Made by a program: the position numbers and the translations under genes. The notes beneath the pieces were generated by a model that was not told the DNA's origin, did not search any database, and was given only the letters and a program-made list of their open reading frames with translations. Source: Paraspadella gotoi (Eukaryota; Animalia; Chaetognatha). Taken from it: 64,000 bases of DNA. The DNA lies in NCBI GenBank assembly GCA_051294375.1, contig CM119264.1, positions 24,282,002-24,346,001 of the forward strand, in the 5' to 3' direction. This document shows, piece by piece, positions 15,075 through 31,893 of this stretch; position 1 is the stretch's first letter; each line of letters begins with the position of its first letter.

Positions 15075-18000
15075 TCAGACGAAAACCGGCGTCGCCAAAG
15101 TTCGCATCAAAACGACGCCGAATCCGACTCCGACGGCGCGCCGGACGCCGCCGGACCGTGCCGTCTCTAAGCGCCGGAAATCGCCGGGTCGGTAGGCGGC
15201 GCGGCGGTAGACGGGTCCTTCGTTGAACTCGACGGAGGCGGTCTTGAGGATGGAGAGCGCCGGGTCAGTCGTCACCAGCATCGATTGGGAGTTGATGAGG
15301 TCGGAGAGGCGCTGGGTCGGGAGGATGCAGTGCTGCGGGGCGGAGAAGGGTGGGGTGGAGGGTGGGAGGCGGTGGAAGGTAGGGAGAGGTAAAGGGAGAA
15401 ACAGTTTTTTTTTTAATCTCGACGAATTTGAATTTAAATTTGCGAATTTTACTTTTTTTTTGTCAAAAAATAAGGATTTTTTTATTTCTTTTTTTTTTTA
15501 CGATTCCGTCACAATGAGAGGTAACATGAGCCAAGCACCGAAGGCAAGCTTGCTAAAAGAGTGCTTGGCATGGCCTATCTCTTTGCTTAGTCAAGCATTT
15601 TGACAAGTGATCCGCTCGGTATAGGCTCTCTCCTTCGACAGTCAAGAATTTTGACAATTGAGCAGATTCTTAGGGCCTTTCTCTTTCTGCAACCAAGCAT
15701 TTCGAAAGAACCCTTTTATTTTTCATTGGAATCTAGATGGTTATCGCGAGAAAAAAGCAGACGATTTCATTTTTAAATACATAATTATTACGAATTGAAT
15801 GAGAAATAATGAAGGATTTCTAAAAAAATATCTATGAATAAAAAAAATGATAACGATGGAGGCGAGACGAAATGGCGGCAATAATGAAGATAAGGAGTCG
15901 GGGGAAGAGGGAAGAATTGGGAGGAAGAGGGAGGAAGAGGGAGAGGAAGAGGGAGAGGAAGTGGGAGAAAAAGAGGGGAAGAAGGGAGAGGAAGAATGAG
16001 GAAGAGGAAAGCTAAGAGGCAGGGGAATGGGAAAAGGAAGAGGGAGGAAAAGAAGATGAACAAAAGGAGGCGGTTAAAACTAGAGGGGAAAAAAGAAGGA
16101 ACAGGGAACACAGAAGAATGGGAGGAAGAAAAGAAACAAAGGGCCAATAGAAGAAGGAGAGAGAGAGAGAGAGAGAGAGAGAGAGAGAGAGAGAGAGAGA
16201 GAGAGAGAGAGAGAGAGAGAGAGAGGAGAGAGAGAGAGAGAGAGATAGAGTAATATTTCACAGATCTCGTTTTCTCGAGCGAAGAAGCCAAAGATAAGAC
16301 TGGGCGATTCTTCTCCCGACAGACGCGAGTCGAATTTCTTTTCAAATCCCAAAAATTCGATTGCGTTTGCAATTTGATTTTCTCAAATCGATGGCGGGAT
16401 TTTTTTTTGGTAGCTTTATAAACATGCAGCTTAACTTACTTTTTCACTTCTATTTAATTTCCCTCCACCAGACTTAACTATTTCCATTTCTTTCTCCCCT
16501 CCTACCTTGTTAATTCCACCATTTCACATTTCATATTTTCCATCTTTCATTCTCCGTTTTGCATTTCTCATTCTTACATTTCCCTCCATTCTCCCCCGCT
16601 CCCTCCTTTTCCAATCCAATTCTCCCATTTGCCCCCTCCTCATTCCCCGTTCTCCCGTTCCCCCGTTCTCCCGTTCCCCCGTTCTCCCGTTCCCCCGTTC
16701 TGAGCCATTAAATGGCGAAACCGGGAGGCACAACAGGAGTGGAACCTTCATCTCGATGTGAATAGATTCAGTTTTACACTCGAAAAACGTCAAACAAAGC
16801 GCGGGAAAATATTCAGAAGGAAGTGGGGGGGGGGGAGAGAAAGAAAAAAAAAGTTGGCCATTGTGTTTTGCTGTTTTTATTTCCAAAAGCGACGATTTAA
16901 TTTTATCCTCCTCGTCTTAAAATGTTTAAAAAGATTAAAATTTATAACCGTTCGTACGTATAAAACAGGAGAAAGTTGACGTCTTTGCGCCTAAGGCGGA
17001 CAGAACGCAAAAATTTATTATTATTTTTTTAAATCCGAAAGATTTTGGTGGAATTTTCGTGCCCGTGTCATGTCTTAGTATTTATTGAAATTAATTTTAA
17101 ATTAATCTTTTCTACCCAATGTCGCCCTTTATTTACCTTGTCGTTTTCTAATCTTTTTTTCATCCTTTTCGTTTCCTTTCCTTCGTCGTCTTCATCATCG
17201 TCGCCATCGTCGTCGCCACCGTCTCCGTCGTCGTCTGCTTCCTGTCCCTTCTCTTTTCCCACTTCTTGGTTTTTATCAGTGGTGACGTCGCCGTTGTTGT
17301 TGTTGTTGTTGTCGTTTTCGCCGTCTTTGACGTCGTCGTCGGCGACGTCTGGAGATCGGGTGGCGAAAACTAGATTGTTGTTGTATTGAGTCGTCAACTT
17401 CAGGTGGCACTCGTTGGATGGATTCGTCAGCTGGAAAAATAAAATGGGAAAGAGAAAATTAATAATGGATTCCATGACGTATTCTCTCTCCATCTCACTC
17501 TCTCGCTCTCTTTCTTTTCTTTCGCTCGCTTTTCCTTTGCTTTATTTTTTTCCCTTCTTACTCCGTCCCTTCCTTTTTTTCTCCCATCCCCCCCCAGGGA
17601 CCTCCCTCTCTCTCACCTGCACCTCCCTGTCCAGCAGCCTCTCCAGCCTCCCGGTGATCTCGTTCATGGAGAAGACGGTCGAGTTCTCCAGCAACATCGT
17701 CATCTCTCTGCTGGAGAAACCGACGAAGAGGAAAACCCCGCCGCCAGGGGGCGAGAGGACGGGCGGTTTGGCGCATATGACGTCGCCGAGGAAGCAGAGG
17801 CACCACCCGCGGTCTTGGAAGGGGGCGTGGCCAGGGAGAGGGCGGGGTAAGAGCGTAGCGGGGGGGGGGGAGGGAAATGAATAAAATAAACTAAGGGAAC
17901 AGCGGGGTATTTGGTCAGTCACTTTAGGGGTAAGTCGGAGTCCGACGAAAGTAGAAGATGAATTTGAAAATGTAAGTAAACTAAATTAATTTAATTAATT

Positions 18001-30000: not shown

Positions 30001-31893
30001 TAATTTTCGAACGGTCAACTCACCCTCTGGCATTTCCGGCTGGCCATGCAGGCGTCGAACACCGTTGAACAACTTCTCATCTCGATCTGCACGGAAGGGC
30101 GCGCCTCGGGCGACGCCGGTTTGGCGGCGTCGTCGGCGTCGTCGCCGTCGCTCGTTCCTTTACCCGGCTCTGTAATTTTTGTTGTTGTTTTTTTTTCTTG
30201 TGTAAACTAAACAAACAAACAATCGGAAAAAAACGTCGATACCGACGAAGGACCATTGAAAGTCGTCGTCGTCGTCGTCGTCGTCGTCGTTGTCGTCGGC
30301 GGAGGCGATTATGACAGAACCTTTTGAAGCTGACGCGGCCACGCGGAGAGAAAAAGCGGGGGTGAGAAAAGGGGAGAGATGGAAAAAGGGGAGAGAGAGG
30401 AAAAAGGTGGGAGATAGGAAAAAGAGAGGGAATCAAGGAGAAAATAGAAAAGCTGAATAGCAGAATAAAAGAATGGTTAGAACGTGGTTAGAAAACAACA
30501 TGGAAATCAGGAATAAAAGGGATGAAAATGAGAGAAGAGGTTTGGGAAAAAGAGAGATGACCAATGGAGAAAAAAAAATGAAGTCATTGATTCAGACAGT
30601 AAGGTCCGATTTTTGGGGATTGAGAATGGAGCAAGCGTGGTAAGGCAAAGTAAGTGTAAGAAGAAGGGGATCAATAGTCAATATTATTAAGATATTGTAG
30701 GAGAAATTAAATGATGTTGCTATGAGGAGTGAGGGGAATAAGGATCAGAAGCGGAATAAAAATGGAGAGATTAGCCTGGGGAGTGAACATCGTTAGAAGT
30801 TATGGAGGGAAACTAATTGCTGGTCGATGGAAGGATTAGTGAAAAGCCTTTCGAGTGAAGCAACAAATCCTTTTAATATCCAAGTGAGGTATCTGACCTT
30901 TAATCGGAGTGAAACGATCACCTCACTTATGGATATAAACATAATAAATTGACTCATGCTATCTCTTCACTTTTGAATCGGAATATATATCTTTGTTACG
31001 ATTTCCCATTTTTAGATTAAATAAACCAGACTGTGTCGTGATTGAAATTTTAAAATAAGTCTGCCGCGTTAGCCTGTCCAAAGTCAAGGGCATGATGGCT
31101 CGTTTATTAAATTAATAAATAATTTCATATTGGTTGTATCATTTTCTTATCCTGAGAGCAGATTTGTAAGTTACAAAACGCTCTTACAACCGATCGCATC
31201 TAAGACAAGATACGTGCCTCATCTCACCGATTGGCTTAAAAAGGGGAAAGCACGACCTCATCTCACCGATTGGCTTAAAAGGGGGAAAGCACGACCTCAT
31301 CTCACCGATTGGCTTAAAAGGGGGAAAGCACGACCTCACCTTTGGATTTGGTCGGGAGGGTGAGGCGAATCTGTTTCCCGCCCGAAGTGGAACCTTGAAG
31401 ATAATGCTTCGCCGGAGAATCGTCGTTGTTGCTGTTTGGTTCGGGTGGAACTAAAAAGGGGGGGGGGTAATGGAGAGGCTCAGCTTTATGCAGTTTGGGG
31501 TCATTGTCAAAATGTCTGACACTTTCGATGCCATTATCATGGCCTATTTGTAATAATGACTCACACTAGTCCGACATCGATTGATAGATTAATCAGTTTA
31601 TTATTATTTTTTTTTATTATTATTATTTATTATTATTTCAAACTTTAGTCATTGTTGTTGTCATAAACATCATCATCATCGTCGTCGTCGTCGTCATCGT
31701 CGTCGTTCACCTTTCGACGGATCCCAGCAAGGGTTGTCGTACAGTACAGTCCGGATGTGACGACATTCGCGACGAGCGACTTCATCGGTTGTGTTTCCGC
31801 AGTAGCAAGTGCGGATCATGGGATCGCGGCGCACCTTGGCGAGCGCCTTGACGCACTCGTTGAAGTCGCGCGGGCGAGAGAGGCACTTCACTC
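15075..31893 (-). CDS. Multi-exon cell-surface protein: at least 4 GFRa/GAS1-type Cys-rich domains fused to a RECK-like FnI/VWC module and RECK-like C-terminal domain, probable GPI signal (>930 aa; 5' end unresolved)
   Basis: Phase-consistent GT-AG exons 5'->3': 31893-31711, 31450-31340, 30329-30243, 30169-30024, [one short exon not located], 26247-26100, 24946-24611, 24434-24349, 24147-23971, (22572-22519 possible), 21491-21424, 20376-20145, 19789-19600, 19393-19188, 18577-18490, 17813-17617, 17430-17137, 15332-15075. GFRa-type domain examples: SCVQAFMLCQLDMNCQTKLAQVLTSCQ/VLTDGVACDFGTCRAALRAFYRGIHVGHAMALGFCTCSAGDGRCRRIRNGFHPPCL and RPSCLSLEAQCRDQEDCK/HHLDEFTLAC...LLCRESFLGLLGTVLSTECSC...ACLK/FHRAVFRNACV. 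C-terminal HCILPTQRLSDLINSQSMLVTTDPALSIL resembles RECK as recalled. Confidence 0.85.
20605..21174. mobile_element. Second copy of the same MITE family, opposite orientation, in an intron of the GFRa-RECK-like gene
   Basis: TA|CACAGCGGCGCAAAAAAA ... AGTGGCTCCTTTTTTTGCGCCGAAGTG|TA. Subterminal 21110-21174 is a diverged reverse complement of 55307-55375. Confidence 0.7.
22936..23160. repeat. 66-bp minisatellite x~3.3
   Basis: GGCCTCTTCTGGGAGAAAAGAAAGGAGCCATTTGGTTTTAACCCTGGATACGGAAAGTGGCCATCA repeated with no spacers. Confidence 0.9.
25548..25645. repeat. 18-bp CpG-rich minisatellite
   Basis: GTGACGACGACGCTGC-type units, ~5-6 copies. Confidence 0.85.
26760..27960. repeat. Degenerate polypyrimidine minisatellite followed by a degenerate GACTGGCCGGAAA repeat
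   Basis: Recurrent TTCTTCCTTTCCTCTTCCAAATTTCCTCC units (26760-27515) and ACTGGCCGGAAA variants (27585-27955). Confidence 0.75.
31216..31339. repeat. ~39-bp minisatellite x3 abutting a splice donor
   Basis: CCTCATCTCACCGATTGGCTTAAAAGGGGGAAAGCACGA repeated next to the donor of exon 31450-31340. Confidence 0.9.

Follow-up and report, generated by a model that had tools for sequence, protein, structure and literature searches.

What kind of receptor is encoded on the minus strand between positions 31893 and 15075 of the 64,000-nucleotide stretch of the Paraspadella gotoi genome analysed here (contig CM119264.1, positions 24,282,002 to 24,346,001, hereafter the window)? A sequence-only reading had proposed a new chimera, in which a head of GFRalpha domains sits on the stalk of RECK, a tumour-suppressor protein and Wnt co-receptor. 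In this study, we rebuilt the gene model and compared it with fly Gfrl, and we find that the gene is a member of the known Gfrl family and not a new chimera. From its sequence, it is very probably the Gfrl orthologue of this animal, with four GFRalpha domains, a Cys-rich tail and a predicted role as a co-receptor anchored by glycosylphosphatidylinositol (GPI). Fly Gfrl (munin) is described in PMC3527400, the accessible parts of which are used throughout, as a 114-kDa protein with an open reading frame of 3129 bp, four GFRalpha domains and a long region before its anchor. The architecture which had been taken to be undescribed therefore has, as a whole, the layout of Gfrl, described in 2012 (PMC3527400).

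Likeness of the gene to fly Gfrl

The head of the protein contains 36 cysteines in four blocks of six, ten, ten and ten. The claim of at least four GFRalpha-type domains is borne out by exactly four (D0 to D3), three of which are complete with ten cysteines, while the first is represented by Cys5 to Cys10 only. Taking the fly domains from Fig. S1 of PMC3527400 and counting spacings by hand, we observed identical Cys spacings at eight of nine positions in D1, seven of nine in D2 and six of nine in D3, and the distance from Cys6 to Cys7 across D0 to D3 is 16, 15, 22 and 16 in the window, compared to 17, 15, 22 and 16 in the fly. D1 of both proteins could be aligned without gaps over 58 residues, with 17 identities, eight of them cysteines. 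Fly exon boundaries were taken from Table S1 of the same paper, which gives about 20 bases per exon end, and 13 fly introns could be placed. Two of these lie at the identical codon and phase as in the model (one codon after Cys10 of D1, phase 1, and one codon after Cys3 of D3, phase 2) and two further ones, both around D0, share the phase and are at most one codon away. Of nine exon pieces taken from the model up to exon 12, two matched the Pfam family GDNF/GAS1 (PF02351), in both cases as half-domains (exon 7, E 0.0055; exon 8, E 5e-4, 21.2 bits against a cut-off of 22). Among PDB sequences, exon 8, belonging to D2, matched GFRAL with E 1.3e-6 and GFRalpha chains with E 0.04–0.8.

About 400 residues follow Cys523 in the model. 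Compared to their vertebrate counterparts, Gfr-like proteins of insects have twice the size, owing to the long sequence which separates D3 from the anchor (PMC3527400, accessible parts). Hand translation of fly exons 19–23 yielded one consistent frame, with one acceptor and three donor bases set aside, and numbering was anchored on the published sequon N918, by which the mucin stretch ends with Thr 778, one residue off the 777 given in PMC3527400. The fly tail then shows Cys 784 followed by KR-IY, GIFLLLG at 878, TQCTLTL (Cys 922) and DEC (Cys 959), and the window tail C597 followed by RVF, GVFLFVG at 700, NECHLKL (C748) and KHC (C840), so that the landmarks pair as RIY/RVF, GIFLLLG/GVFLFVG, TQCTLTL/NECHLKL and DEC/KHC. 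The first Cys and the G are 94 residues apart in the fly and 103 in the window, the G and the next C 44 and 48, and past the last Cys 83–84 and 83 residues follow, whereas the last two cysteines are separated by 37 residues in the fly and 92 in the window. Exon 12 additionally resembles fly exon 19 and the first part of exon 20, again by hand translation. The sequence-only reading had stated that insect Gfrl lacks such a tail module, which does not agree with the landmarks found at similar distances in the fly tail exon ends. Since fly Gfrl has these landmarks, head and tail were already joined in the common ancestor of this animal and flies, if not earlier.

Differences between the two proteins were also observed. 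Between its last two cysteines the window protein carries an acidic insert of about 70 residues (39% Asp/Glu; 17137–17360, minus strand), corresponding to about 55 extra acidic residues compared to the fly, and a coding serine run lies inside the folded D3 (20280–20340, minus strand). The Thr-rich mucin stretch following D3, which in the fly comprises Thr stretches at 615–777 (PMC3527400, accessible parts), is absent, residues 525–596 containing 7% Thr.

The C-terminus is hydrophobic, as had been noted, albeit only moderately so, with the best 19-residue Kyte-Doolittle mean of 1.76 at 905–923 and one Arg inside. Small residues are found at 896–900, and there is no cytoplasmic tail. Judged by this composition, the C-terminus is likely a GPI signal; the GPI anchor of fly Gfrl was shown by phosphatidylinositol-specific phospholipase C treatment (PMC3527400, accessible parts).

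The model itself, rebuilt from the raw sequence, consists of 16 minus-strand exons from 31893 to 15075 with AG acceptors and GT donors, the phases of which agree, although exon ends were picked to fit and phase agreement alone is no independent test. The chain translates into 923 amino acids with a single stop at 15075. Exon number and phases were thus as described before and all quoted peptides are present in the translation, but a length above 930 residues was not reached by the model. A second in-frame AG acceptor at 25012 (minus strand), 66 bases 5' of exon 6 and recognised by eye, would add 22 residues and give 945, which fits that length. The 923-residue model contains 48 cysteines and nine N-glycosylation sequons, and its exons are richer in G+C than the region (60% versus 42%). 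In sequencing run X1, which we assume to be RNA, two contigs with a depth of 2–3 on 18130–20270 were examined. They display the spliced joints 20145>19789 and 19188>18577 with CT..AC ends, a loose contig end at 18490 is identical to the 30 bases with which exon 14 begins, and 3 of the 15 junctions are supported by this run. The gene is a real multi-exon animal gene.

Exon 1 opens in phase 1 in the middle of D0, and upstream (5') exons are missing from the model. Motif and profile scans in six frames revealed neither a start codon nor a signal peptide nor the N-terminal half of D0 in the window. A C-x6-C-x5-C motif at 33865 was considered as the missing D0 exon and dropped, as a stop precedes the fourth Cys. 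Above 33.9 kb the window consists of nearly duplicated, gapped sequence, in which 33871–43192 and 45420–55061 form a tandem near-duplicate of about 9.5 kb with 92–95% identity and an N gap in each copy, and further short copies are located at 44.2–45.3 kb. This near-duplicate likely represents uncollapsed haplotypes or an assembly artefact, and the missing 5' exons may be concealed in it or shifted by it.

Weighing the readings of the locus

For a Gfrl orthologue, the following mode of action can be envisaged. The signal peptide, together with the first half of D0, would be encoded in the missing 5' part, and at the other end the C-terminus would be swapped for a GPI anchor, as in fly Gfrl. 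The domains of the protein are of extracellular type and, as it has no cytoplasmic part, it is unable to signal by itself. By analogy, its GFRalpha domains may capture a ligand of the TGF-beta superfamily of the Maverick or GDNF type, and the captured ligand may then be presented to RET, or the protein may act together with a partner of the NCAM/FasII type. Two disulfide fingers and an alpha/beta domain would form a stalk holding the head off the membrane, and this stalk and the FnI and C-terminal parts of RECK likely go back to one module.

Several observations weigh against this assignment. No full-length relative was retrieved and hence neither a tree nor a reciprocal best hit nor an E-value versus fly Gfrl could be obtained. 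All Pfam matches of the gene fall under their cut-offs, and none of the 11 PDB matches of D2 is an invertebrate chain. D0, half of which is missing, shares only two of five Cys spacings with the fly, and nine of the 13 placeable fly introns have no counterpart in the model. The tails were compared by eye on short exon ends, and fly exon 20 comprises 74 residues compared to 80 in the window with nine cysteines, its interior, where the finger cysteines are expected, not being visible. The junction 19600>19393 between head and tail falls into a gap of the run X1 contigs (19220–19669) and is unconfirmed. Furthermore, a RET-in-cis mechanism is weakened, since fly Gfrl and Ret are found in different cells with little overlap and no response to GDNF was seen (PMC3527400, accessible parts).

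Relatives were searched for with single short exons as queries, and for this reason the searches failed or returned noise. Protein database searches with single exons or with an alignment of the four second half-domains gave 0 matches among 47, 3 and 2961 candidates, and the ESM Atlas offered nothing usable for either exon 8 or exon 14. With exon 14 as query, a full HMMER search returned four matches, all to unrelated repeat proteins. Three loci came up in a metagenome scan, where they match by chance in frames that are GC-rich and apparently bacterial. In the PDB, exon 12 gave WD40 matches which were rejected, since they add up over repeats and no single stretch passes. Single-sequence folds reached a mean predicted local distance difference test score of 48 for exon 14 and 55 for exon 12, which is too low for use.

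It is improbable that the gene is instead a Gfrl-family paralogue or divergent copy which mainly serves adhesion or matrix binding and is not a growth-factor co-receptor. Such a role would be in line with long low-complexity inserts in the window protein and with the findings on fly Gfrl, namely heparin binding, an interaction with FasII and a lack of co-expression with Ret (PMC3527400, accessible parts). However, the order D0 to D3 and the tail are fully kept, as expected of the main orthologue. Myers 2018 moreover names Gfrl in its title as a co-receptor for Ret and Maverick.

We consider even less of a case to exist for a lineage-specific chimera, in which a GFRalpha array was recently fused to the back half of a Kazal-less RECK gene. 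It could draw on exon 14, which matched only two of 24,736 Pfam models, namely DUF7921 (PF25537; 19.6 bits, E 0.0012, cut-off 27, model positions 25–40 of 40) and FnI_RECK (PF25028; 12.6 bits, E 0.17, cut-off 30, half the module only). It could likewise draw on the absence of any Kazal match on the 13 exon pieces scanned against Pfam, by which the proposed lack of a Kazal region is supported. Yet when exon 14 was trimmed to 22 residues, DUF7921 outscored FnI_RECK on the same residues (23.5 versus 15.9 bits, the latter with E 0.016), where trimming to a known match inflates significance, and the tail landmarks shared with the fly at similar distances render the join old. DUF7921 is presumably built on Gfrl-type proteins. 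Finger 2 is split over exons 13 and 14 and consequently only half of it was scored; exon 13 alone and five other tail pieces had no Pfam match, and no RECK chain was among the PDB sequences retrieved with exons 12, 14 and 16. What speaks for the proposed RECK-like stalk is a weak FnI_RECK signal on finger 2, below its cut-off.

About as improbable as the chimera is a pair of adjacent genes, in which a GFRalpha gene would stop around exon 11 and a separate small RECK-like gene would begin with exon 12. In its favour, separate run X1 contigs lie on either side of 19600>19393 with none across. Against it, at a depth of 2–3 a contig hole proves nothing, the intron of 206 bases has GT..AG ends and matching phases, exon 11 has no stop before its donor, exon 12 has neither start nor signal peptide, and fly Gfrl unites the same parts in a sequenced cDNA (PMC3527400, accessible parts).

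Coordinates and neighbouring features

Table 1. Exons of the Gfrl-like gene with their content and the evidence for each
Feature	Position	Strand	Content	Evidence
Exon 1	31711..31893	-	D0 second half, Cys5-Cys10	Splice sites, frame; Cys spacing 10,16,2,12,12
Exon 2	31340..31450	-	Linker	Splice sites, frame
Exon 3	30024..30169	-	Linker and D1 Cys1-3	Splice sites, frame, Cys spacing
Exon 4	29305..29358	-	D1 Cys4-5	Splice sites, frame, Cys spacing
Exon 5	26100..26247	-	D1 Cys6-10	3' intron at position of fly exon 9 end
Exon 6	24611..24946	-	D1-D2 linker, low-complexity	Splice sites, frame
Exon 7	24349..24434	-	D2 Cys1-4	PF02351 positions 1-26 of 87, E 0.0055
Exon 8	23971..24147	-	D2 Cys5-10	PF02351 E 5e-4; GFRAL E 1.3e-6
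Exon 9	21424..21491	-	D3 Cys1-3	3' intron at position of fly exon 15 end
Exon 10	20145..20376	-	D3 Cys4-9 and serine run	Joint 20145>19789 in run X1
Exon 11	19600..19789	-	D3 Cys10 and Gly/Ala-rich linker	19670-19789 within spliced contig
Exon 12	19188..19393	-	Tail start, finger 1 (C597, C631, C635, C637)	Joint 19188>18577
Exon 13	18490..18577	-	Finger 1 end and finger 2 first half (C647, C652, C658)	Inside spliced contig
Exon 14	17617..17813	-	Finger 2 second half (C679, C681, C688), strand-helix-helix start of alpha/beta domain	DUF7921 and FnI_RECK matches
Exon 15	17137..17430	-	C748, two predicted strands, low-complexity acidic insert of ~70 residues	Start resembles fly exon 22
Exon 16	15075..15332	-	C840, conserved-looking helix-strand segment, small-residue site, hydrophobic end, stop	Likely GPI signal

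Convergent with the Gfrl-like gene, a multi-exon alkaline phosphatase gene is located at about 5100–9800 on the plus strand, with PF00245 matches at 6638–7117 and 8448–8828 and a hydrophobic stretch at its end. A DUF229 gene with several exons occupies about 58690–62900 on the minus strand (PF02995, E 5.5e-34 for 59574–60149). At 50832–52760 (plus strand) we observed a long low-complexity open reading frame of 642 amino acids with repeated acidic Tyr motifs and no Pfam match, a broken counterpart of which is found at about 39000–40740; by eye its end resembles the start of an SH3 domain, and it could belong to an adaptor protein. At 61770–62220 and 22940–23170 there are non-coding tandem repeats, the units of which measure about 44 and 66 bases.

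Comparison with GFRalpha receptors and RECK

As a gene, it is an ordinary if divergent representative of a family whose fly member was characterised in 2012, and the remaining interest lies in its tail. Finger 2 passes directly into the alpha/beta segment within exon 14. By eye, the last tail segment aligns ungapped with the RECK residues quoted in the sequence-only reading, with 9 of 29 identical including the cysteine; as these letters are unverified, the alignment is a lead and not a test. The same applies to the order of RECK modules given in the sequence-only reading. We lean towards the stalks of RECK and Gfrl being truly homologous. With the same moderate inclination, we propose a model in which RECK and invertebrate Gfrl are sister proteins which carry different ligand-catching heads on a single ancient stalk with a GPI anchor, a CC/Frizzled-like head for Wnt in RECK and a GFRalpha head for TGF-beta-type ligands in Gfrl. 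In this model, either RECK would have gained its Kazal motifs by insertion or Gfrl would have lost them, and the stalk would have disappeared from the GFRalpha receptors of vertebrates. Homology of the tails, if it holds, would give the Wnt co-receptor RECK a common ancestor with the GDNF-receptor family and would provide a comparison family for the unstudied last 170 residues of RECK.

A common origin of both tails, if real, is possibly unreported. No link between the RECK and Gfrl tails was found in the open literature, subscription journals and InterPro texts being outside this scope. In its accessible parts, the fly paper treats the tail only as a long spacer and does not contain the word RECK (PMC3527400). 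The accessible parts of a 2026 RECK review give 971 amino acids for the human protein, name no domain past the last Kazal motif at residue 772 and mention neither GDNF nor Gfrl (PMC12842694).

Compared to known systems, the window protein shares the 10-cysteine domain with vertebrate GFRalpha1-4 and GFRAL, D2 matching GFRAL best and GFRalpha chains weakly. Vertebrate GFRalpha and GFRAL have fewer domains, and GFRAL is a transmembrane protein. While the vertebrate GFRalpha proteins are roughly half as large and have no long pre-anchor region (PMC3527400, accessible parts), the window protein features four domains and a tail of 400 residues. RECK, on the other hand, has five N-terminal CC repeats, Kazal motifs in mid-chain and a Frizzled-like domain, in place of which the 923-residue model carries GFRalpha domains. 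No adjacent Cys-Cys pair occurs among its 48 cysteines and no CC-domain Pfam match was obtained on the model, which starts after the missing 5' part, in agreement with the proposed absence of the RECK CC head. What RECK and the window protein would have in common is a GPI-type C-terminus, predicted for the window protein, and the module to which finger 2 shows its weak FnI_RECK match, below the cut-off.

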